From Candidatus Doudnabacteria bacterium CG10_big_fil_rev_8_21_14_0_10_41_10 (lineage in GTDB: Bacteria > Patescibacteriota > Doudnabacteria > UBA920 > 2-01-FULL-50-11): 40,374 nucleotides of DNA. The translations under genes and the position numbers were made by a program. This document shows, piece after piece, positions 9,605 through 40,128 of the stretch. The notes under the pieces were generated by a model. It saw only the letters and a list, made by a program, of their open reading frames with translations, was not told the DNA's origin and made no database searches. Position 1 is the first letter of the stretch. The number at the start of each line of letters is the position of its first letter. The stretch spans positions 5,961-46,334 of the forward strand of contig PFAJ01000070.1 in assembly GCA_002773695.1 (NCBI GenBank), in the 5' to 3' direction.

Positions 9605-10672
9605 TCACAGTTCTATCACTAGCGCGTTTTTTACAATTTCTTCAGGGAGTTCTTCCAAATTGGTGGTTGTCAAAAATATTTGTGAATCTTCCGGTAAACT
9701 TTCTAAAACCTGCCTTCTACGATCTTCGTCAAGCTCCGCTTGAATCTCGTCCAACAGCACAATCGGAGACATGTGAAGACCGTCTTGTAAATACGCGACT
9801 TCTTTTCTTTTTAAACAGGTAACAATGCTTCGCTGTTCTCCTCGTGATAAAAAATGTGCCAGATTGAAACTGTTACTGTCTTGAATTTTCCAATCATCCC
9901 GATGTGGCCCCGCGCCAGTCCTCCCCGAAGCGATATCCGCCTGTCTTTTTTCTAAAAATTTTTTTGCATACATTCCAGGGTTTTCACCTAAAGAGTTGTT
10001 ATAGTAAAACCTTAAATCTCGCTCCTGCCCACTAACCTTTTTGTACAACAAAGAAAGCCCTTGGTCTACATAATCTGAAAACTCTTTTCTTTTCCTCACT
10101 ATTTTTTCTGCCAACTCAATTGTTTTTGTATCCCAAAAATCCAACTGGTCTAACCCCGCAGACCCCTGCCGAATATTATAAAGTAATTCGTTTCGTTGGC
10201 TCACCACTTTTGTATAACTAGACAGTTCCTCCTCATAATCTTTGTTGGTTTGTAACAATATGTCGTCTAAATATTCTCTCCGTAAACTTGGAGACAATTG
10301 TAATAAATTCAGGTCCTGCGGTAAAAAAACTACGACCGGCAAATACCCCAGCATCTCCCCGGCCTTTTTTCTAACTCCATCAATTTTTTGCGCGCGCTCA
10401 TACCGCTTTTCATTTTTTCTTCCATAGTAATATTCAAATTCTTTTTCTTTGGTTTCAACCTTAATTCTAAAATAATTTTTTCCAAAACCTATCAACTCCC
10501 AAGATTTATTTGGGGGGAGGCCCAACAAAACAGACGCGTAAAAAATACTTTCCAAAAAACTTGTTTTACCACTGGCGTTTTTTCCCACTAAAATAACAAA
10601 ATCTTGATCTATTTTTAAATCAAGATTTGATAGCCCTCTGAAATTCTCAAGTCTTAGTCTGCTTATCTTCAT
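9605..10672 (-). CDS. recF: DNA replication/repair protein RecF
   Basis: RLENFRGL...GKNASGKTSFLESI Walker A, SMC-like signature region, and position after dnaN. Confidence 0.9.
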   Translation of the reverse strand: MKISRLRLENFRGLSNLDLKIDQDFVILVGKNASGKTSFLESIFYASVLLGLPPNKSWELIGFGKNYFRIKVETKEKEFEYYYGRKNEKRYERAQKIDGVRKKAGEMLGYLPVVVFLPQDLNLLQLSPSLRREYLDDILLQTNKDYEEELSSYTKVVSQRNELLYNIRQGSAGLDQLDFWDTKTIELAEKIVRKRKEFSDYVDQGLSLLYKKVSGQERDLRFYYNNSLGENPGMYAKKFLEKRQADIASGRTGAGPHRDDWKIQDSNSFNLAHFLSRGEQRSIVTCLKRKEVAYLQDGLHMSPIVLLDEIQAELDEDRRRQVLESLPEDSQIFLTTTNLEELPEEIVKNALVIEL

Positions 10673-10690
10673 TTACTTTTTTAGAGGCTA

Positions 10691-11788
10691 TTAAGTTTTT
10701 ATCGGCATCACCAGATAAAGATAATTATCTTCTCCTTCGGGAACCACCATCGCCGGGGAACTGCTATTTATAACCTTTAAAACAACCTCTTTGTTGTGAA
10801 GGTGGTTTAAACAATCAAGAATGTAACGATAGTTAAAAATTATATTATTATCCTCTCCTTCAACAACCCCTCTAACCTCTGTGGTGTTTGATCCCGCCCG
10901 TTGTGAGGTTGCTTTAATCACCACCGCGTCTTTATTTTTAATTATATCAAGTTCAACGTTATTATTTTCTTGAGCAAATAAACCGGAGAGTTTCAGCGCG
11001 GATGTTAGTTCTTTCACCCCCAATTTTATTTGAGTTGGAAAATCCGTTGGAATAATTTGTTTGTAGTCTGGATATTGCCCCTCTATTAAACGGGAGATTA
11101 TCTCTACCCCATTAACTTTGAATAATATTTGATTGTCAGAAATCAATATTTCTGCGTCGTTTTTACAACCACTCAAAACCCTCCCCAATTCAGTAATCGC
11201 CCTGTTTGGAACAATTGCTTTCTTTTCTCCTCCACCATTTTTTAAATCTATTATTTTTTCCGCCAATCGATATCGATCCGTGGCGGCCATTGTAAGTTTT
11301 TTTTCTCCCAGCTCAAAAAGTACTCCTGATAACTCCGGTTGAGTTTCTGAAAAGGACGAGGCAAACAAGATTTGTGCCACCGCTCCCGCTAAAATCTCTG
11401 CGTTTACTGTTGTTACAATGCCGTCTTGAATCTCAGGAATAAGTGGAAAATCTTCCGCTGGCAACCCTTTTACCACGGATTGGGTGCTTGGGGTTTTTAC
11501 CAAAAGGTCTGTCATTTTTGTTTCTAGCATTATTTTTTCCTCTGAAATATTGTTTATATAATCAACGATTGTGCGTGCCGGCACTGTTATCTCCCCCGGT
11601 TTTTCAATCTGGGCTCCAACCCATGTTTTAATTGCGATTTCTAGATTTGTTGAGGAAATTTTAAGTTGTCCCTCCTCGGTTTTCAGAAGAAGGTTGTTTA
11701 AAATCGGAAGGGTTGTGTTTGATCCCACGGCTCTAGACGCAAACCCTAACGCTCTTTTTAAATTTTCTTTTGTACAGTTTAATTTCAT
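10691..11788 (-). CDS. dnaN: DNA polymerase III beta sliding clamp
   Basis: 365 aa, three-domain clamp-like sequence (MKLNCTKENLKRALGFASRAV...), located between dnaA and recF. Confidence 0.92.
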   Translation of the reverse strand: MKLNCTKENLKRALGFASRAVGSNTTLPILNNLLLKTEEGQLKISSTNLEIAIKTWVGAQIEKPGEITVPARTIVDYINNISEEKIMLETKMTDLLVKTPSTQSVVKGLPAEDFPLIPEIQDGIVTTVNAEILAGAVAQILFASSFSETQPELSGVLFELGEKKLTMAATDRYRLAEKIIDLKNGGGEKKAIVPNRAITELGRVLSGCKNDAEILISDNQILFKVNGVEIISRLIEGQYPDYKQIIPTDFPTQIKLGVKELTSALKLSGLFAQENNNVELDIIKNKDAVVIKATSQRAGSNTTEVRGVVEGEDNNIIFNYRYILDCLNHLHNKEVVLKVINSSSPAMVVPEGEDNYLYLVMPIKT

Positions 11789-12016
11789 TTTTCAACAGCC
11801 CTTATTATTATTATTTAATTATATTAAAAAAGAAGTATTAGTAGTAGTCTCTGTGGATTTGTTAAGAACATACAAACAACCAATATTTATAACCACAAAA
11901 CAAAGAGGTTTTTTTGGTAGCTTGTGGAGATGGTTGTTGGCGGGCTGTTGGTAGACTTGTTGATAAATATAGTTATCCTTTTTTATACCAACCCATCAAC
12001 AAGATCTATACAGCCT
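11789..12016. other. candidate oriC segment (dnaA-dnaN intergenic) with DnaA-box-like 9-mers
   Basis: TGTGGATTT at 11853-11861, ATAACCACA at 11889-11897, TGTGGAGAT at 11923-11931, TGTTGATAA at 11958-11966 (one mismatch to TGTGGATAA), and TTATCCTTT at 11973-11981. Confidence 0.5.
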
Positions 12017-13393
12017 TTAAAGACAAGCCTTATCGACTATTAATAAGAGCTCTTGCTTTAGATTGTCGTCTTCTTTTTTGATTCTATTAATCTTATTAAT
12101 AGCATGAATTACTGTGGTATGGTCCCTTCCACCAAAAAACTCACCAATGGAAGGGAGAGACGTTTCCAGTTCTTTTCGGATCAGATACATAGAAATTTGA
12201 CGGGGTTTTACAAACTCTTTTTTTCGGGACTGTTTAACCAAGTCTTCAATGGTTACGTTGTAAAAATTAGCAGCTGCCTCCATAATTTTTCTCGGGGTAA
12301 GGCCGCGCTTCTTTGGTTGTGCTATCAGACTGCTCAATATTTCTTTAACCTTGTCAAGTGAGGGTTTGGTGGTGTTTATTTGGCAGTAAACAATTACTCG
12401 ATTAAGGGCGCCTTCCAACTCCCTAATATTAGATTCAATATTCGTGGCAATAAAATTGATCACTTCCGAAGAGATCTCGTAATTTTTTTCTTTTACTTTA
12501 CTTTTTAAAATAGCGGTTCTTGTTTCCAAATCCGGCGCCTGGATATCCGCCACCATTCCACCCTCAAACCTGGAAACCAGACGCTCCTCAATGGAAGGAA
12601 TTTCTTTTGGTAGCCGGTCTGAGGTAATAATAATTTGTTTATTGTGATTGTGGAGAGCGTTAAAAGTGTGAAAAAATTCTTCTTGGGTTTGCTCTTTCCC
12701 GGCAAGCGATTGAATGTCATCAATTAACAAAACATCGAGTTTACGATAACGGTTTTTAAAATCGTGGGCGCGGCCGTCTTTAACAGCCATAATAAATTCA
12801 TTAATAAAACGCTCGGCGGACACATACAACACTCGACTTTGAGGGGTGTTTTCAATAATTTTTCTACCAACAGCCTGCATGAGGTGAGTTTTACCCAAAC
12901 CGACACCCCCGTAAATAAACAAAGGGTTATAAGCAGTCCCCGGTTTTTCAGTAATAGCCAGTGCCGCCGCGTGAGCGAGTTCGTTGGTTTTTCCAACAAT
13001 AAAATTTCCAAAAGAAAATTTTGGGTTTAGAATACCGGCGAGAGTCCTTGGTTTTTGCGGCGCCTCTTCTATTTTTGTGTCTTTTCTGGTAACAAGTTCT
13101 GTTTTTTGATCTAGTTGTGGAGAAATTGCTGGTGGTTTGGCAAAAGACCCGATTTCGTAACGAATTTCTCTAATTTCAGGATCAATGGATCGCACCGCTT
13201 GTAGGATGTTTTGGTGATATTTTTTTTGAAGCCATTCTTTAGTAAAAGTATTCGGCACCCCTATGGTCACTCCTCCAGGAGTGCTGTTAACAACAAAAGT
13301 ATTTTTAAACCAAGTGGTAAAGTTTGGTTTAGAGAGGGAAAGTTCAAGGTTTCCCAATACTGCCCGCCAAAATTGTTCATTGTTCATGGACAT
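12017..13393 (-). CDS. dnaA: chromosomal replication initiator DnaA
   Basis: GGVGLGKTHLMQA Walker A, LLIDDIQ, and a C-terminal DNA-binding helix (GGRDHTTVIHAINKI). Confidence 0.95.
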   Translation of the reverse strand: MSMNNEQFWRAVLGNLELSLSKPNFTTWFKNTFVVNSTPGGVTIGVPNTFTKEWLQKKYHQNILQAVRSIDPEIREIRYEIGSFAKPPAISPQLDQKTELVTRKDTKIEEAPQKPRTLAGILNPKFSFGNFIVGKTNELAHAAALAITEKPGTAYNPLFIYGGVGLGKTHLMQAVGRKIIENTPQSRVLYVSAERFINEFIMAVKDGRAHDFKNRYRKLDVLLIDDIQSLAGKEQTQEEFFHTFNALHNHNKQIIITSDRLPKEIPSIEERLVSRFEGGMVADIQAPDLETRTAILKSKVKEKNYEISSEVINFIATNIESNIRELEGALNRVIVYCQINTTKPSLDKVKEILSSLIAQPKKRGLTPRKIMEAAANFYNVTIEDLVKQSRKKEFVKPRQISMYLIRKELETSLPSIGEFFGGRDHTTVIHAINKINRIKKEDDNLKQELLLIVDKACL

Positions 13394-14492: not shown

Positions 14493-15221
14493 ATGCTCTC
14501 AAATATCTACCATACAATTTTAGTCTCTCCTTTATTAAATTTATTAGTATTTTTTTACAATTTACTTTGGAGTGATATTGGTTTGGCGATAATCGCTGTT
14601 ACGGTTTTAGTAAGATTAATTTTATACCCGTCTTTTAAACACCAACTCGAGTCGCAAAAAAAATTATCAGAGCTTCAACCTCAACTGCAAGAACTTCGAA
14701 AGAAACACAAAGACGACAAGGAAGCGCAAAGTAAGGCAATGATGGATTTTTACAAAAACAACAAAGTAAACCCGTTTGGTTCGTGTTTACCAATGTTGAT
14801 ACAGTTGGTTATTTTATTTGCTTTATACCGAGTGTTTTTAACCGGCCTAAATGGAGAGATACTAAACCAACTTTACTCGTTTGTACCAAACCCGGGAGAA
14901 ATAAATCCGGTGTCATTAGGGTTTATTAATCTTGCTGAAAGCAGTTTGGTTTTGGCTGTTATTACCGGAATAGCACAATTTTTCCAAAGTAAATTAATGA
15001 CTAAATTTACCCCAAAATCCGTAAAAAACGGAAAAGACGCGGGGGGAATGATGACTAACATGATGTCGACGCAATTCGTTTATATTTTCCCGGTTATTAC
15101 AGTGGTTATTGGTATGAGGTTGCCGTCGGGGTTGGTAATTTATTGGCTTATTACCACGCTGTTTGCGGTTGGACAACAATATTTTATAATGAGAGGAAAA
15201 TCAAAAACCGCTAATCAATAA
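14493..15221 (+). CDS. yidC: membrane protein insertase YidC/Oxa1 (short form)
   Basis: 242 aa with a conserved core (KLSELQPQLQELRKKHKDDKEAQSKAMMDFYKNNKVNPFGSCLPMLIQ). Confidence 0.88.
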   Translation: MLSNIYHTILVSPLLNLLVFFYNLLWSDIGLAIIAVTVLVRLILYPSFKHQLESQKKLSELQPQLQELRKKHKDDKEAQSKAMMDFYKNNKVNPFGSCLPMLIQLVILFALYRVFLTGLNGEILNQLYSFVPNPGEINPVSLGFINLAESSLVLAVITGIAQFFQSKLMTKFTPKSVKNGKDAGGMMTNMMSTQFVYIFPVITVVIGMRLPSGLVIYWLITTLFAVGQQYFIMRGKSKTANQ

Positions 15222-15229
15222 ATTTTTTT

Positions 15230-15691
15230 ATGGAAGGAACACAGGAAAAAATTAAACAGCATATTTTAAAACTCCTCGATCTTTTAAAGATCGAGGGGAC
15301 GGTAGCGATAGATGACCGTAACGGGCAGCTTTTTTTTAACATCACAAGTGAAGATTCAAATATGTTAATCGGTCACTACGGACAGAACCTGAAAGGGCTG
15401 CAACATTTGGCGCGATTGCTTGCAAGAAAAGATGTTTTAAAAGGACAGTTGCCCCAACGGTTTTATGTGGATGTGGGAGATTATCGGAAAGAGCGAGGAG
15501 TGTTTTTAGAGGCACTGGCCCGCAAAGCGGCTTCGCGAGTACGGGAGACTAAACAAACCTTGATTTTGAAACCAATGAACAGTTCTGATCGGAAGATGAT
15601 TCATGTGACCCTGTCAAATTTTGATGATTTAATAACCGAGAGCGTTGGTGACGAGCCGGAAAGAAGGATCGTGATTAAACTGAAGGAGTAA
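15230..15691 (+). CDS. jag: Jag-like KH/R3H RNA-binding protein
   Basis: 153 aa with the R3H-type segment LKPMNSSDRKMIHVTLSNF, located after yidC. Confidence 0.8.
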   Translation: MEGTQEKIKQHILKLLDLLKIEGTVAIDDRNGQLFFNITSEDSNMLIGHYGQNLKGLQHLARLLARKDVLKGQLPQRFYVDVGDYRKERGVFLEALARKAASRVRETKQTLILKPMNSSDRKMIHVTLSNFDDLITESVGDEPERRIVIKLKE

Positions 15692-16128: not shown

Positions 16129-17460
16129 TCATATTTTTGTATTTGTTAATGTATGTGATTTTAAAACAGGTAAAACTCCAATCAAAAACCAAAACAGAAT
16201 TGCTAAATCATTTTTGAAAAACGGCGCGTCGACTTGGCCGTGGACAAATAAAACAATTATTCCTGCAAAGAGGGCCAGGATTAACGGCTGTGTTTCCGAG
16301 TTTTCTTTATAAAGTTTTATTCCCTTCCAAAAAATCCAAACCAATATCAATACCACAGACAGCACTCCAAGTAAACCCGTCTCCACCCAGAAATTTAGAA
16401 AGAAATTGTGAGGATAATTTAAAACTTCATCAGTGCTTGACTCTCTGATTTCGGCGTAAGCCTCACGAAATCCGTACAACCCCACTCCAATCATCGGATT
16501 CTCCTTAATTATTTCCCATGTGCCCTTGTAAAGCTTTATACGCTCATGAGAAGCAGGGTCAGCGCCAGTGAATAGAGGGGCTAGGCGGTCGCGGGATGTC
16601 GGGATCATTAAAGTTCCAACAATCCCAATTAAAAGCAATGCGATTATCGGCTTTTTAAATTTATTGAATAAGGATAAAAACAATATCGCCACGACATAAC
16701 CAATCCATGCTCCGCGGGAAAAAGTTAGCATTAAAAGAATAATACCTAATAGGGTTACAATGATTAGGAATTTTTTTGAAAAAATAAGATCCCTTTTAAT
16801 CCCTCCTTGTAAAGGGGAAAAAATTAATTTATCCCAAAAAATTAATAGGGCAGAATAGATTGCAAGAATTGGTGTGATCAAAAGCGCCACGGCATTGGGG
16901 TAAGTGTAAAACGAAACGATTCGTCTGGGCTCGGTTCCCGGTCCCCACCAAGACGGGGGGAGGTGGTACAGAGTGAAAAACTGGTAAATTCCAAAAACCG
17001 ATAAAAAAATTATTAATACCCCAAGAGTTTTTAATGAATTGAAAAGCTTTTTTTGGTTGTCGATTAGTAAAATAAACAATATCCAAAAAAGAAACCCTTC
17101 AAAAAAATATGCTTTAAAAAGCCCCAGCGCTTTTATTGTTTGTGGGCTTGTAAAAATAGCAATTCCAGAAGCCAATAAAAACAAAAATATGAAAATTATT
17201 AACCAATAAGATTGTTTTATAATAGCCAGGAGCCGTGCGATTATCGTTTTACGGTATTTTTGGTTAACAATAAGGCGCGTAAAAATTACTGCTGCCAAAA
17301 TTAAAATCAACCACTCAAGATAAGTGGTTGGGAATGCGGGCATATTAAAACGGACTTGATAAGTAGGAAGTAGTAATAGGATTATATAAATACCCCAGTG
17401 AGGCCGGAGGGAGATGAGGAGAGTGTAGATTATTAGAGAAAGGATAATTACAATTAACAT
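16129..17460 (-). CDS. O-antigen ligase/polymerase-like (Wzy_C) membrane protein
   Basis: 443 aa and polytopic, with a Wzy_C-like segment (TFSRGAWIGYVVAILF...NYPHNFFLNFWVETGLLGV). Confidence 0.75.
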   Translation of the reverse strand: MLIVIILSLIIYTLLISLRPHWGIYIILLLLPTYQVRFNMPAFPTTYLEWLILILAAVIFTRLIVNQKYRKTIIARLLAIIKQSYWLIIFIFLFLLASGIAIFTSPQTIKALGLFKAYFFEGFLFWILFILLIDNQKKLFNSLKTLGVLIIFLSVFGIYQFFTLYHLPPSWWGPGTEPRRIVSFYTYPNAVALLITPILAIYSALLIFWDKLIFSPLQGGIKRDLIFSKKFLIIVTLLGIILLMLTFSRGAWIGYVVAILFLSLFNKFKKPIIALLLIGIVGTLMIPTSRDRLAPLFTGADPASHERIKLYKGTWEIIKENPMIGVGLYGFREAYAEIRESSTDEVLNYPHNFFLNFWVETGLLGVLSVVLILVWIFWKGIKLYKENSETQPLILALFAGIIVLFVHGQVDAPFFKNDLAILFWFLIGVLPVLKSHTLTNTKI

Positions 17461-34177: not shown

Positions 34178-34714
34178 TTATAATCTAACTAGCCTGTACT
34201 CCCATCCTGGTCTCCATGCCCAAGGGGTGGTTACCGCCTGCCTTAAAAGGGTCTTATTTATAAAATATTCAAGAGCATATTGTGTTGCCCGGTGACCTAT
34301 TATTAAAACAGTTTTGCCGTCGTATTTTTTTAGTAAGTCTAGCAAAAAAAATTTCATTAGCGTCGTGGTTTATTCATAGCTTTCCCCTTCTGGAAAAGGT
34401 ATTTTTACCTTCCGAGCTTTTTGGTATTTAACCTCGGCGCTTGGTCGTTTGGTCATCTTCCCGTAATCAATCTCCGAAAGTCTTTTGTCAATAATTATCG
34501 GGATACGATTTTCGAATGCGATTTTTCCCGTATCCAAAGATTTTTTTAGATTGGAACAAAAAACCGCGTCGGGTAAATTATTTTTATACCTATCCCCCAA
34601 TTGTTTCGCTTGCGTCTCACCTAGTTTGGAGAGTTCTATATCATAGTGACCTGAGGCAAGTCCTTTTTCATTGTTCAAAGTTGTACCGTGTGCTTCAAAA
34701 ATGATAGTAATCAT
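34178..34714 (-). pseudogene. histidine phosphatase (phosphoglycerate-mutase-like) family gene interrupted by an in-frame TAA
   Basis: The N-terminal part (34373-34714) ends ...PEGESYE, followed by TAA at 34370-34372. The same frame then continues TTTLMKFFLLDLLKKYDGKTVLIIGHRATQYALEYF...RLVRL to the stop at 34178-34180. The canonical RHG motif reads EAHGTT, so the catalytic Arg is replaced by Ala. Confidence 0.7.
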
Positions 34715-34815
34715 TTCGTTTTATTCTACGTGAAACAATTGTAAAACACTCTTAATCGGGGCGCTGGGAGTTGATCCGCCTAGGCGGACTACACGCGCCT
34801 TTACCCCGTTAAACA

Positions 34816-34886
34816 TCGGGATGCCGGGAATCGAACCCGGTCTTCACGCACCCGAAGCGCGCGTACTACCGGTATACTACATCCCG
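34816..34886 (-). tRNA. tRNA-Pro (anticodon CGG)
   Basis: The minus strand reads CGGGATGTAGTATACCGGTAGTACGCGCGCTTCGGGTGCGTGAAGACCGGGTTCGATTCCCGGCATCCCGA. Anticodon loop TTCGGGT with G37, T-loop TTCGATT. Confidence 0.9.
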
Positions 34887-35031
34887 ATGATGTCTAACGG
34901 GGCGAACGTACGTTTTTTATTTTGTGAAATTTTTTAAAAGAAATTTGTTCCGGTTAAATTCCCTCCCCCGATCTCGTTTCCATGAGATTTTTTGAGCTTT
35001 ACCCCCGGCGGAATTTCACCCCGCACCTTTT

Positions 35032-35103
35032 TCTCCCCACCAGGAATCGAACCTGGATCTAGGGCTTAGGAGTCCCTTGTTCTATCCATTGAACTACGGG
35101 GAG
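35032..35103 (-). tRNA. tRNA-Arg (anticodon CCT)
   Basis: The minus strand reads CTCCCCGTAGTTCAATGGATAGAACAAGGGACTCCTAAGCCCTAGATCCAGGTTCGATTCCTGGTGGGGAGA. Anticodon loop CTCCTAA. It closely parallels the E. coli argW layout as I remember it. Confidence 0.88.
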
Positions 35104-35108
35104 CAAAA

Positions 35109-35174
35109 GGCGCGGGGTGAACTTACATTTAGAGCTTAGGCTTCCCTTGTTCTATCCATTGAACTTACGGGGAC
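35109..35174 (-). pseudogene. orphan tRNA-Arg(CCT)-like 5' part ending in TTCACCCCGCGCC
   Basis: The minus strand reads GTCCCCGTAAGTTCAATGGATAGAACAAGGGAAGCCTAAGCTCTAAATGTAAG-TTCACCCCGCGCC. The D arm is identical to the real gene 5 nt downstream. The anticodon loop is changed to AGCCTAA (U33 lost), and there is no T arm or 3' acceptor strand. Confidence 0.65.
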
Positions 35175-35238
35175 TCTTCTTTAATTTTAGCAACCTATTC
35201 TCCTACTAACAAACCCGCCTTTATAGCGGGCTTGTTTC

Positions 35239-35309
35239 TGGACCCACGGGGAATCGAACCCCGACCTCATCCATGCCATGGACGCGTAATGCCACTTTAC
35301 TATGGGCCC
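35239..35309 (-). tRNA. tRNA-Ala (anticodon GGC)
   Basis: The minus strand reads GGGCCCATAGTAAAGTGGCATTACGCGTCCATGGCATGGATGAGGTCGGGGTTCGATTCCCCGTGGGTCCA. G3:U70 identity pair present; anticodon loop ATGGCAT. Confidence 0.9.
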
Positions 35310-35883: not shown

Positions 35884-35899
35884 TGTTTCACGTGAAACA
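35884..35899. promoter_or_regulatory. perfect canonical ParB-binding parS palindrome
   Basis: TGTTTCACGTGAAACA matches the well-known chromosomal parS consensus at 16 of 16 positions. With flanks it extends to an 18-bp palindrome, TTGTTTCACGTGAAACAA. Confidence 0.75.
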
Positions 35900-35971
35900 A
35901 TACTAAATACAGTATTTTCTGTGAAACATACTTATTTAATAGCATGTTTCTTGTGAAACAATAATTAAATA

Positions 35972-37771
35972 ATGGCTAAATTTACACAAAAATTCATCCT
36001 AATCTTATTTGGAATATTGGTTCTTCTCCTTCCTATACAAACCAGATTAATCCAATTTATCCCTGAATCACACATTGATCAGAGTTTCATATTCTATAAT
36101 GTGCTATTTTTGTATATTTCAGACATTATTTTAGCTCTAACTCTAATAATCTGGGCCTTTTCAGGCTTGTTTCACATGAAACAAGCCTCCCCAACTATGC
36201 TTCAGCGCAAGGAGCAAGAGAGTGTTTCCCACGAAACATATAATAAGGCTCTTAATAATGTCGGCAAGAGGAATGTTTTCCATGAAACTAAGCTGGGTAG
36301 ATTAGGTAATGTTTCGCATGAAACATACCTTTGGTTGTTTTTTCTTGTTTCTTGTTCATCACTCATTGTTTCACGTCAAACAATAGGATCATGGGAGTTG
36401 ACTTTTTTTGGCTTATTTAAGCTATTTTTAGCTGTTTCTTTGTTTAGTTTCATGCGAAACATATTTAAAAAGGGTGTTTTCCATGAAATTTCGACTGTAG
36501 AAGGTCATTCTAAGAAGAGTTTCTGGGGGATGTTTCCCATGAAACAGTTGGCAACTTCTACTTTTTGGCTAATTTTAGCAACTTCTATGTTTCAGGCTGG
36601 ATTATCCATTATTCAGTACTTTACCCAGAAATCTGTAGGAGTGAAACTTTTAGGCGAAGAGGTTATAAGAAACCATATTCCGGGCATAGCCAAATTTATT
36701 GTTTCAGGAGCACCAAGATGGTCGCTTGATCGTCTGTTTGATGTTTCCCATGGAACATCGATTTTAATTCGTCCGTATGGTACATTTTCTCACCCTAATA
36801 TTTTTGGGGCCTTTATGTTTTTCTCTGCTCTAATAAATTTTTACCTCTATGTTTCATATGGAACAAATGTTCAAAACAATGATCAAAAAGAGGGGAGCGT
36901 TTCCCGTGGAAGATGGGTTAAGGGATTGCTTTCGTTTGTTCTTTTCGTTCAGATTTTTGCCGGAGTAATTTCTTTTTCTCGAGTCGCGATAGTGGCGTTT
37001 GGTTTATCGACCCTTTTTTGGTTTGTGTTAATGTGTTTCATGGGAAACAAATCCAAAGCAAATGTCATTTCCGCGTTGCGCCCTTCTGAAGCCTTTGGCG
37101 AAGGAGGGAAAACGGGAATCCATGACCGAGAAGACAGGCAAGTAAGAAAACCTGGATACCCGATCGGATTCGGGGATGACAAAAAAACAAAGATAGCAAT
37201 AAAATCTTTCAGTCTTACATTTTTTAAAAAAGAAGGAAGGGGACTGATTATTACTTTGGTAGCGAGTGGGATTATCCTGTCAGCACTTTTCTACCCTCAC
37301 TTTTTAGAGCGTGGGGGAGTTGTTTCACATGGAACAACTAACGAAAGGTCTATATCTGAAAGGATTTTATATCAAAAAATTTCCGTGGAGATGATAAAAC
37401 AAAACCCACTCACCGGAGTGGGTTACAAGAATTTTGTAATGGTAATGGATGACTATAGCCCACAAAAATTACAGTCGAACCAACATCAACCTGTCCACAA
37501 TATTTATTTATTGATAGCCGCAGAAACCGGTTTACCCGCCTTGATAATATTTTTGATATTTATAATAACTATTCTAAAGCAAGCCTGGTGGAATCGAAAA
37601 GATCCTTTAATCATAACTTTATTATCTATATTTATCGGATTCCTTTTTATCGGACTGTTTGATCATTACTTATTGACTATCCAGCAGGGGAGACTAATGT
37701 TTTTTTTAACCGCGGGATTGTTGGCAGTATCATCCAAAATAGCAGTACCAGCCTACTCTATGAAAAAGTAA
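35972..37771 (+). CDS. enlarged O-antigen ligase/polymerase-like (Wzy_C) membrane protein carrying the parS-like palindromes
   Basis: 599 aa. The C-terminal part has the Wzy_C-like segment FSRVAIVAFGL...HQPVHNIYLLIAAETGLPALI. The N-terminal and central parts contain hydrophilic inserts with recurring VSHET/VFHET/MFPMKQ peptides. Confidence 0.75.
   Translation: MAKFTQKFILILFGILVLLLPIQTRLIQFIPESHIDQSFIFYNVLFLYISDIILALTLIIWAFSGLFHMKQASPTMLQRKEQESVSHETYNKALNNVGKRNVFHETKLGRLGNVSHETYLWLFFLVSCSSLIVSRQTIGSWELTFFGLFKLFLAVSLFSFMRNIFKKGVFHEISTVEGHSKKSFWGMFPMKQLATSTFWLILATSMFQAGLSIIQYFTQKSVGVKLLGEEVIRNHIPGIAKFIVSGAPRWSLDRLFDVSHGTSILIRPYGTFSHPNIFGAFMFFSALINFYLYVSYGTNVQNNDQKEGSVSRGRWVKGLLSFVLFVQIFAGVISFSRVAIVAFGLSTLFWFVLMCFMGNKSKANVISALRPSEAFGEGGKTGIHDREDRQVRKPGYPIGFGDDKKTKIAIKSFSLTFFKKEGRGLIITLVASGIILSALFYPHFLERGGVVSHGTTNERSISERILYQKISVEMIKQNPLTGVGYKNFVMVMDDYSPQKLQSNQHQPVHNIYLLIAAETGLPALIIFLIFIITILKQAWWNRKDPLIITLLSIFIGFLFIGLFDHYLLTIQQGRLMFFLTAGLLAVSSKIAVPAYSMKK
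36168..37336. repeat. array of 13 degenerate parS-like 16-mers inside the CDS
   Basis: Site starts are 36168, 36223, 36274, 36310, 36367, 36446, 36475, 36531, 36742, 36850, 36898, 37034 and 37321. All fit TGTTTC-N4-GAAACA with 1-5 mismatches to TGTTTCACGTGAAACA. Confidence 0.65.
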
Positions 37772-38610: not shown

Positions 38611-38701
38611 ACTTTGTTGTTTTTAAATTAACAAAAAATCGTTTTTTTACGAAACAGCATTTGCACTTCGTAGCCCCGAGTAATAGCGAGGAGCGAAGAA
38701 G

Positions 38702-38772
38702 TGGACTCACCGGGAATCGAACCCGGGCCTCAGCAATGCGAATGCCGCGTAATACCACTTTACTATGAGCCC
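38702..38772 (-). tRNA. tRNA-Ala (anticodon CGC)
   Basis: The minus strand reads GGGCTCATAGTAAAGTGGTATTACGCGGCATTCGCATTGCTGAGGCCCGGGTTCGATTCCCGGTGAGTCCA. G3:U70 present; anticodon loop TTCGCAT. Confidence 0.9.
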
Positions 38773-39118: not shown

Positions 39119-39682
39119 ATGCCTTACAATCTAATAATATTTGAAATTATCGCAATCGTTTTAGGTCTTTTGTCTTTGATTTTGGTGCTGGTTTTTTTGA
39201 GCAAGTTGCGTTCGCTTCAAAAATTTCAAAAAAGTTTTTTATCAGGCGCTCGAGGCACCAATTTGGAAGAAATAATAATGTCACAGCGAGAGGATGTCAA
39301 AAAATCTTTGGAGGATATAAAAAAATTATCACAAGCGAATAAAATTTTAGCCGACCTACATTTGCTTTGTATTCAAAAAGTTGGGATGGTTCGATTCTCG
39401 GCGTTTCCCGGAGAAGGTGGAAATCAAAGTTTTGCAATCGCCCTACTTGATGCCTACGGAACAGGGGTGGTAATTTCATCAATTTATGGACGAGATACTC
39501 AGCGAATATTTGCCAAATCCGTAAAAAAAGGAGAATCAACCAATGCCTTGACGGACGAGGAAAAAAAGGCGATACTACAAAGTCACAGTGTTGAAGAGCA
39601 AATAGAGCTGGCAGGTGAACCGCAAAATGAGAGTTTTGCCAAAAAATACGTTAAAAAAGCAACTCGTAGAATTAAGAAATAA
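39119..39682 (+). CDS. DUF4446-family membrane-anchored protein
   Basis: N-terminal TM segment followed by KVGMVRFSAFPGEGGNQSFAIALLDAYGTGVVISSIYGRDTQRIFAKSV, which matches my memory of the DUF4446 core. Confidence 0.7.
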   Translation: MPYNLIIFEIIAIVLGLLSLILVLVFLSKLRSLQKFQKSFLSGARGTNLEEIIMSQREDVKKSLEDIKKLSQANKILADLHLLCIQKVGMVRFSAFPGEGGNQSFAIALLDAYGTGVVISSIYGRDTQRIFAKSVKKGESTNALTDEEKKAILQSHSVEEQIELAGEPQNESFAKKYVKKATRRIKK

Positions 39683-39693
39683 GAGTAAGAGTT

Positions 39694-40128
39694 ATGGCTA
39701 AAGATAAGGATAAAGATAAAGAAAAAAATAATATTATGGACACTTCCCAAACAGAAGATGCTCAGCCAGCAGAAACCGTGGTTGGTCACTCGGTTAAAAT
39801 CGAAGGAGATTTGGTATCAGAGGGTGACATCAAAGTTGATGGAATCGTGATGGGAAAAGTTAAAACCGCAAAATCTTTATTTATTGGTCCAAGCGCAAAG
39901 ATTGAAGCTGATGTTGAAGCGGGAACGGTTACGGTTGCCGGAGTTGTTCACGGGAATATGAAGGTTAAAGGATTATTGGTTGCTTTGCAGACAGGAAAAA
40001 TCTTGGGAGATATCGATTGCAAGGAGTTGGCGATAGAGGAAGGAGCATTTTTTACAGGACAATGTAAAATGACTGAACGCAATGAGAGTAAAAAAATTTC
40101 CAAACCAACTCTCGACGACGAGGACTAA
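39694..40128 (+). CDS. bactofilin-family cytoskeletal protein
   Basis: Beta-helical repeat core IEGDLVSEGDIKVDGIVMGKVKTAKSLFIGPSAKIEADVEAGTVTVAGVVHGNMKVKGLLVALQTGKILGDIDCKELAIEEGAFFTGQ with disordered termini. Confidence 0.85.
   Translation: MAKDKDKDKEKNNIMDTSQTEDAQPAETVVGHSVKIEGDLVSEGDIKVDGIVMGKVKTAKSLFIGPSAKIEADVEAGTVTVAGVVHGNMKVKGLLVALQTGKILGDIDCKELAIEEGAFFTGQCKMTERNESKKISKPTLDDED

Follow-up and report, generated by a model that had tools for sequence, protein, structure and literature searches.

Here we describe a dense array of 16 palindromes resembling parS, the bacterial centromere site, that lies within and just upstream of a gene for a membrane protein of the Wzy_C / O-antigen-ligase family in Candidatus Doudnabacteria bacterium CG10_big_fil_rev_8_21_14_0_10_41_10 (contig PFAJ01000070.1); the whole stretch analysed, 40,374 nucleotides, is called the window below. 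The parS sites and their binding protein ParB constitute a near-universal bacterial centromere system, in which the sites are normally few, scattered 16-mers, and to our knowledge their placement is thought to matter only as distance from the origin. Plasmid centromere arrays, such as F sopC (12 tandem 43-bp units), P1 parS and R1 parC, are non-coding and regular, lie beside the par operon and use plasmid-specific sequences. Noc is a ParB paralogue that brings DNA to the membrane, and the Noc-binding sites of Firmicutes (NBS; ATTTCCCGGGAAAT) lie dispersed along the chromosome, away from its terminus. In Myxococcus xanthus, the sites of a multi-site parS cluster extend over ~15 kb or more, and the partition complex owes its position to a scaffold of bactofilins (BacNOP) and PadC. 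Rickettsia palindromic elements are selfish in-frame repeats of 100-150 bp, spread over many genes and with no known binding protein. Among the chromosomal systems, Caulobacter carries a cluster of at least 5 parS sites ~8 kb from ori (PMC5815017), and P. aeruginosa carries ten parS sites, four of which (parS1-4) are near oriC (PMC4368675, PMC5961200).

The array in the window resembles the chromosomal ParB-parS systems of B. subtilis (Spo0J/parS), Caulobacter and P. aeruginosa in its 16-bp palindrome, its origin proximity and its clustering, and in those systems too single sites are often intragenic and degenerate or half sites are tolerated. It differs from them in density (16 sites within 1.45 kb, where Caulobacter has a handful distributed along 8-10 kb or more); in the concentration of the sites in one conserved membrane-protein gene, which is occupied in three frames and expanded and has no parAB adjacent to it; and in the retention of the same host gene as carrier across many species. 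A full-text search of the literature (parS/ParB in Patescibacteria or the Candidate Phyla Radiation (CPR), intragenic parS, O-antigen ligase, DUF4446) found no description of such an arrangement. What is new is a dense array of chromosomal consensus, overprinted in three frames on a conserved membrane-protein gene that has grown with it and has been retained across many Patescibacteria, and this appears to be a mode of chromosome-centromere construction not described so far. We hypothesize, with a probability that we put at about 0.68, that the locus is a centromere array for ParB loading, situated near the origin and contained in a coding gene.

All 16 palindromes reported in the initial annotation were found again with the same positions and sequences (35884-37336), three of them intergenic, before the ATG, and 13 intragenic. 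The three non-coding sites all fall within the 155-bp gap that precedes the ligase ATG. The host gene and the sites are as follows; the sites, being palindromes, are given without strand, and the codon phase and the peptide read across each intragenic site are indicated.

35972..37771, plus strand: host gene, 599-aa polytopic Wzy_C / O-antigen-ligase-family membrane protein, longer than its site-free homologues (median 436 aa).
35884..35899: canonical parS TGTTTCACGTGAAACA, perfect; intergenic, 88 bp ahead of the ATG; the identical 16-mer adjoins soj-spo0J in 79/120 metagenome loci.
35913..35928: degenerate site TATTTTCTGTGAAACA; intergenic; right half intact, 2 arm mismatches.
35945..35960: site TGTTTCTTGTGAAACA; intergenic; arms perfect, centre TTGT; shares nucleotides with the spacer of a promoter-like match (35936-35965), itself weak.
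36168..36183: site TGTTTCACATGAAACA; phase 1, FHMKQ, where a hydrophobic helix ends; one mismatch to the full 16-mer.
36223..36238: site TGTTTCCCACGAAACA; phase 2, VSHET; the loop here is hydrophilic and inserted.
36274..36289: degenerate site TGTTTTCCATGAAACT; phase 2, VFHET; shares the inserted loop of 36223.
36310..36325: site TGTTTCGCATGAAACA; phase 2, VSHET.
36367..36382: site TGTTTCACGTCAAACA; phase 2, VSRQT, in a slot common to relatives (VSRET).
36446..36461: site AGTTTCATGCGAAACA; phase 0, SFMRN; centre forced off consensus to avoid TGA.
36475..36490: weak site TGTTTTCCATGAAATT; phase 2, VFHEI; 3 arm mismatches.
36531..36546: site TGTTTCCCATGAAACA; phase 1, FPMKQ, in a slot common to 18 loci and used in two different frames.
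36742..36757: site TGTTTCCCATGGAACA; phase 2, VSHGT.
36850..36865: site TGTTTCATATGGAACA; phase 2, VSYGT.
36898..36913: decayed site CGTTTCCCGTGGAAGA; phase 2, VSRGR; occupies the VSRGT/VSRET slot that a good site fills in 25 relatives.
37034..37049: site TGTTTCATGGGAAACA; phase 0, CFMGN.
37321..37336: site TGTTTCACATGGAACA; phase 2, VSHGT (VVSYGT motif family-wide).
34722..34737: outlying site TATTCTACGTGAAACA; right half of parS perfect; separated from the array by 1.15 kb, it precedes a minus-strand His_Phos_1 gene (34370-34714), whose start is 8 bp away.

The host protein matches Pfam PF04932 with 57.8 bits (cut-off 31.7) and has multiple hydrophobic helices, and its relatives stem from Patescibacteria/CPR metagenome bins. 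Sites were scored either on the 12 arm bases of TGTTTC-N4-GAAACA or on the full 16-nt parS TGTTYCACGTGRAACA with at most two mismatches. By the arms, seven sites are without mismatch (35884, 35945, 36168, 36223, 36310, 36531 and 37034), five have one (36367, 36446, 36742, 36850 and 37321), two have two (35913 and 36274), and two have three (36475 and 36898), each of the last two being weak when taken alone. The only perfect full-length parS among the 16 is that at 35884, and the others are degenerate mainly in the central 4 bp, as had been noticed before. The codon phases previously assigned to the intragenic sites, 1,2,2,2,2,0,2,1,2,2,2,0,2, were reproduced exactly, with all three reading frames in use. 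When at most two arm mismatches were allowed, the 40-kb window yielded 17 matches against 4.04 ± 1.85 in dinucleotide-preserving shuffles (maximum 9), and 15 of the 17 fall within the 1.45-kb interval, 14 being listed sites and the 15th lying at 36700; the matches at 36700 and 36346 are probably due to chance. The full 16-mer gave 11 matches where 0.03 were expected (maximum 1 in 100 shuffles), ten of them inside 35884-37336 and the 11th at 34722, whose membership of the array is uncertain. The array matches the chromosomal parS pattern TGTTNCACGTGAAACA, of which relatives carry many perfect copies. The initial annotation had likened it to a plasmid-style centromere, and the comparison holds for density: as in sopC and similar arrays, many close sites for a partition protein would form a compact centromere. 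It does not extend to structure, since here the consensus is chromosomal, the DNA is coding and the spacing is irregular (29-579 bp). The common unit measures only ~16-25 nt, in place of a regular tandem unit longer than the binding site, and no longer repeat, miniature inverted-repeat transposable element or tandem unit was found around the window sites. Nor does a par operon on a mobile replicon adjoin the array, the context being one of chromosomal housekeeping genes (dnaA, PBP, TyrRS, IF2, tRNAs).

The recurrence of these sites in the same gene family of other species gives strong support to a parS-type array. The initial annotation had proposed to compare orthologous ligase genes, and in 80 GTDB species-representative genomic loci encoding relatives of the host protein, taken with flanks of ±10 kb, the palindromes recur at the DNA level: at least one site is present in 43/80 loci, at least three in 33/80 and at least five in 21/80. 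With at most two mismatches to the full parS, 226 sites were counted in 143 kb of ligase open reading frame (ORF) ±150 bp, and the 1,113 kb of flanking DNA contained 21; the density differs 84-fold, or 18-fold under the looser arm-only criterion. On the 59-kb source contig, a scan of the remaining sequence detected no parS-like site beyond the ligase locus. The maximum is 13 sites per gene, 11-13 of them perfect (L053 and L063, 13 each), followed by 11 each in L027 and L039; in these four loci all sites but three are perfect, and the ORFs with heavy arrays encode intact Wzy_C proteins. The three closest relatives of the window (L208, L210 and L211) carry 9-14 sites each, in and just before the gene, with variable centres. 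Two variants were observed, the canonical TGTTTCACGTGAAACA (T..A) and the symmetric TGTTCCACGTGGAACA (C..G), and each genome contains almost exclusively one of them, as is expected if a single dimeric protein reads all sites. In an alignment with homologues of 40-48% identity, the peptide images FHVKQ, VSRET/VSHET, VSRGT and VSYGT appear at the same columns. Copies beside the gene in non-coding DNA occur in the window (35884-35960), at L010 4169-4802 (four sites, within the 1 kb that follows the stop) and at L031 1346-2498 (around purN). In Southlakia epibionticum, a Patescibacterium in culture, the O-antigen ligase gene is short, at 1353 bp, and is uninformative for this question.

Other coding hosts of such sites are few. 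A conserved 210-aa protein, encoded in 17/80 loci, hosts one parS-like site (VSRET) in L078 (1557, ORF 1365-2006) and in L037 (2003, ORF 1811-2443), single perfect sites occur in unrelated ORFs of L004 and L031, and the gyrA genes of four Moranbacteria-type loci (L013 14472, L053 8888, L063 14913 and L069 16156) contain the same near-parS TGTTCCACATGGAATA, apparently at a similar position in the gene.

It had also been proposed that the constraint acts on the nucleic acid rather than on a peptide repeat, and this is now borne out: selection acts at the DNA level, not at the peptide level. The 221 intragenic sites of the 80 loci are distributed over the three frames as 125, 56 and 40, and the peptides read from them are unrelated (NVSRETF/NVPRGTF, LFHVKQ/LFHVEQ and CSTWNN). 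In each frame, conservation reaches beyond the 16-mer to the neighbouring bases, with A at -2 in 84-95% and T at +2 in 80-95% of sites (pattern A-W...W-T), which extends the palindrome to ~20 bp. A codon test that avoids circularity by starting from the peptides, and not from the DNA, took its expectation from local codon usage. Exactly parS-compatible codons were found in 96/106 occurrences of V[SP]R[EG]T in the ligases (0.2 expected), in 48/53 of FHV[KE][QH] (3.4 expected) and in 37/37 of C[SF]TWN (0.2 expected), and neighbouring ORFs totalling ~330,000 residues contain the three peptides 3, 0 and 0 times, respectively. In the window itself, the synonymous choices that keep the arms (GTT 9/9, ACA 6/7, GGA 4/4, GAA 4/4) have a joint probability of ~3.5e-10, a figure that is partly circular, as the sites were found by their DNA. 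Different species also use the same alignment slot in different frames, with the caveat that identical peptides attract one another in alignment.

The host gene has grown with the array. Across the related loci, protein length correlates with site number (Spearman 0.85, p = 4e-22), the median rising from 436 aa in site-free proteins through 506 aa (3-5 sites) to 637 aa (at least 10), an expansion of ~15-20 codons per site; this suggests that the sites arrived with short insertions. In the window protein, 13/13 sites map to hydrophilic segments or to the termini of hydrophobic helices, and 12/13 coincide with inter-helix segments predicted with low confidence in an AlphaFold AF2 model, whose mean pLDDT (predicted local distance difference test) is only 60. 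The reading frame also leaves its mark on the sites. In phase 0 the canonical parS reads TGT TTC ACG TGA, a stop, so sites in that phase must deviate; the window uses ATGC and ATGG centres, and in the 80 loci 40/40 phase-0 sites have G at position 12 (TGG, peptide CSTWN; for instance L063 9671 and L047 10880). The TGTTCCACGTGGAACA variant, in which TGG replaces TGA, thus opens the third reading frame, and the degeneracy of the sites is in part a consequence of coding constraint.

The landmark for the origin region is the following gene.

12017..13393, minus strand: dnaA, marking the origin region, 22.5 kb from the array.

The genes recF-dnaN-dnaA occupy 9605-13393 on the minus strand and are followed by yidC and jag/KhpB (14493-15691), and the cumulative GC skew has its minimum at ~12-13 kb of the window. 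On this basis the array lies ~22.5 kb away from the probable origin, in agreement with the earlier estimate of about 22 kb from dnaA, and so in an origin-proximal location with respect to dnaA/dnaN/recF and yidC/jag.

The link between the motif and the Par proteins was examined in control loci, obtained by scanning public metagenome contigs for two perfect 16-mers 8-38 nt apart. Among the 120 loci examined, soj and/or spo0J were present on the retrieved stretch in 79 and both in 60, with the pair of sites typically just upstream of parA; owing to this co-occurrence, the exact 16-mer can be taken as a ParAB-associated centromere motif. The ParA/ParB probes were sensitive, reaching E values down to 1e-100 on these loci. 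In S. epibionticum, adjacent genes encode ParA (K03496) and ParB (K03497, PF02195 + PF17762), both of them scored as essential in two of three transposon-sequencing (Tn-seq) calls (GD/ES/ES) (PMC10633639, Wang et al. 2023, supplementary tables), and a Par system therefore exists in the phylum. The ParB of P. aeruginosa is bound in vivo to isolated half-sites of parS, hundreds of them (PMC5961200), which makes it plausible that a ParB would act on sites with intact arms and a degenerate centre; degenerate sites with one arm retained may likewise be targets.

Two loci from the control scan are of interest in their own right. In L110 (1044-2027), a low-GC contig whose dnaA product is 46% identical to the DnaA of the window, 15 perfect TGTTTCACGTGAAACA copies are packed into ~1 kb of intervening sequence that precedes dnaA by 1.1 kb, a non-coding form of a dense parS array. 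In L147 (59-13217), 13 perfect or one-mismatch parS sites extend over 14 kb, mostly between ORFs, with no parAB in the retrieved stretch.

From these observations, we infer that the source genome encodes a ParB, that this protein would bind the sites, possibly including those with a degenerate centre, and that the array would serve as a functional centromere. The palindromes would be copies of the chromosomal centromere sequence, one perfect and the others degenerate mainly in the central 4 bp, and the array would be a platform near the origin onto which a ParB-family dimer loads; this lineage of Patescibacteria would have built it within a conserved Wzy_C-family gene and immediately before it. 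Sites would have been gained as short insertions in loop-coding segments, in whichever frame tolerated them. ParB would recognise the two half-sites, which contain GTTTC and GAAAC, close as a CTP-dependent clamp and slide onto the flanking DNA; with many close loading sites, a dense partition complex would form, to be moved by ParA and/or used for SMC loading.

Several observations weigh against this hypothesis. The trait, though widespread, is patchy: 37/80 loci are without sites, and among the 150 closest family representatives (50% clustering) 123 have no array, at least one strict peptide image being present in 27/150. The absence of parA and parB noted earlier for the window was confirmed with B. 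subtilis Spo0J and Soj queries, for which tblastn found no ParB or ParA, either in the window or across related loci totalling 1.3 Mb; none is present on the rest of the 59-kb contig, nor in the ±10 kb around the ligase of any of the 80 loci, whereas generic parS pairs, unlike the array loci, usually adjoin parAB. A profile of 20 diverse ParBs, run against 5.8 billion proteins, retrieved only Lachnospiraceae-type ParBs (gut Firmicutes) among the matches listed, none tied to this genome or clade. The window has a single perfect site, and in 11/13 of its intragenic sites the central CpG is lost (CA, TG or TA instead); two close relatives, L210 and L211, keep CG more often. Well-studied ParB proteins read the central CpG of parS, and many window copies may thus bind ParB weakly or not at all. 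The loss of CpG could reflect relaxed selection, tolerance of the reader protein or CpG-directed mutation; the local array would be either partly decayed or read by a protein that tolerates a variable centre. Finally, there is no evident reason why a ParB platform should lie inside a transcribed and translated gene.

Two candidates that emerged from these searches were discarded. The weak Soj-like matches are formate-tetrahydrofolate ligases, and L191, a divergent soj/spo0J locus considered as a Patescibacteria ParB, is frameshifted and probably belongs to a Firmicutes contig.

Downstream of the ligase, an 89-aa ORF is followed by two genes that are conserved neighbours of the array, and then by those for DAGK, IF2, RbfA and NrnA.

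39119..39682, plus strand: DUF4446 gene, 1.3 kb downstream of the ligase; in other bacteria the same family is found directly after spo0J/parB.
39694..40128, plus strand: bactofilin gene, in ligase-DUF4446-bactofilin synteny.

This neighbourhood is kept in L001, L002, L003, L009 and L211. In nine unrelated metagenome loci (L104, L133, L150, L163, L175, L193, L196, L206 and L207), spo0J/parB is also followed, after 140-550 bp, by a same-strand DUF4446 gene, which ties the ligase-DUF4446-bactofilin neighbourhood to par loci and suggests that DUF4446 may be an accessory protein of the par system. The bactofilin gene adjoining the array recalls the ParABS-bactofilin system of M. xanthus, a link of gene neighbourhood only, and at the array, in contrast to M. 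xanthus, neither PadC nor ParAB is seen. On the origin side, a second Wzy_C paralogue (16129-17460, minus strand, 443 aa), just after jag, has no parS-like site and shows weak NCBIfam matches to IctB and RfaL. The idea that site-free loci beside yidC-jag represent this second paralogue was rejected, as all 80 loci are closer to the array-bearing one. Beyond it are genes for a class A PBP, TyrRS, glycogen synthases, RuvC, YebC, ExoVII and four tRNAs; the tRNA genes Pro, Arg and Ala (34815-35309) and a second Ala (38701-38772) flank the ligase locus on both sides. NCBIfam gave no names for the ligase, DUF4446, bactofilin and small ORFs, and tRNAs were the only Rfam families in the window. A small divergent ORF upstream of the ligase was considered as a conserved regulator and dismissed, the upstream ORFs of four relatives not being homologous.

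Of the other explanations, the one that survives best, unlikely as we find it, is that the palindromes are read by a different sequence-specific dimeric protein, either a ParB paralogue (Noc-like or PadC-like) or an unrelated regulator, that controls ligase expression or tethers the locus to the membrane or to a bactofilin scaffold. Such a reader would agree with the lack of parAB near any array, with the overlap of the three upstream sites and the promoter region, with the conserved bactofilin and DUF4446 genes, and with the variable centres tolerated in the window clade, as though the arms alone were read. It is harder to reconcile with the exact canonical parS of many relatives, a 16-mer tied to soj-spo0J in the control scan; moreover, no candidate DNA-binding gene is conserved beside the array, and 13 or more sites over 1.8 kb of coding DNA are unlike an operator. 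As for Noc, the palindromes are related and its membrane role echoes the membrane-gene context here, but NBS are scattered whereas this array is clustered, and Noc is not known outside Firmicutes. The initial annotation had read the TTTCCC halves of several sites as Noc half-sites, a reading that finds no support: none of the 16 array sites is within 3 mismatches of the NBS pattern TATTTCCCGGGAAATA, position 2 is G in 13/16 with the A required by NBS only in 35913, and the TTTCCC halves result from synonymous changes, TCA to TCC, at the serine codon of the V-S-x-E-T frame.

It is highly unlikely that the copies are selfish or slippage-made short palindromic insertions, smaller than but similar to Rickettsia palindromic elements and without function in a tolerant gene. 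Gene length does rise with copy number, the copies are in loops, those of the window are decaying at the centre, and Rickettsia palindromic elements likewise are palindromic DNA that lengthens surface or loop parts in frame without destroying function. Here, however, the repeated unit is a protein-binding-site motif of only ~16-20 bp, identical to a functional site and confined to one gene family, with no longer surrounding element and no repeat of 100 bp or more dispersed over many genes. Its excess over 1.1 Mb of neighbouring DNA holds in lineages whose proteins share 25-40% identity, and the copies remain perfect in many genomes, for which purifying selection would be needed.

Hairpins in mRNA or single-stranded DNA, which might slow ribosomes after each transmembrane helix for membrane insertion or attenuate transcription, are very improbable. 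The location of sites at helix-loop boundaries of a polytopic membrane protein would suit them, as would arms more conserved than the 4-nt centre, like a stem with its loop, and the symmetric change from T..A to C..G. What is conserved, however, is the sequence itself, which is that of parS, with no covariation to other pairs and with asymmetric C..A sites that break pairing; the predicted stems are weak (0 to -7.4 kcal/mol), copies occur in intergenic DNA that does not look transcribed and in non-coding arrays, and no Rfam family matches. Lastly, a peptide repeat (VSHET and the like) needed by the protein, with the DNA likeness as a by-product, would explain why 9/13 intragenic sites share one phase and why VSRET/VSYGT-like peptides hold fixed alignment columns, but we consider it already refuted by the three unrelated peptides from three frames, the intergenic copies, the parS codons (96/106 against 0.2 expected), the flanking bases conserved whatever the frame and the use of one slot in different frames.

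If the array is a ParB-loading centromere, as we favour, its place in a membrane-protein gene would admit a bolder interpretation, which we offer only as speculation of low probability: transertion of the nascent protein would tether the ParB-parS complex and the origin region to the membrane, the DUF4446 membrane protein and bactofilin might assist, and the switch to TGTTCCACGTGGAACA would have been favoured by freeing the third frame. Should this be true, it would provide centromere anchoring for ultra-small cells without known polar anchors. Independently of that interpretation, the locus is a case of dual coding, in which the same DNA specifies a protein sequence and what would be a multi-copy protein-binding platform, and one gene family has retained the arrangement over much of the CPR. 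For annotation, this means that the repeated VSRET, FHVKQ and CSTWN peptides of these proteins are to be regarded as shadows of DNA sites, and DUF4446 is flagged as a candidate accessory of the par system. For organisms whose cell biology is almost unstudied, a probable centromere is now identified, which offers a handle for tractable Patescibacteria and raises the question of whether a centromere within a membrane-protein gene couples chromosome segregation to the membrane.

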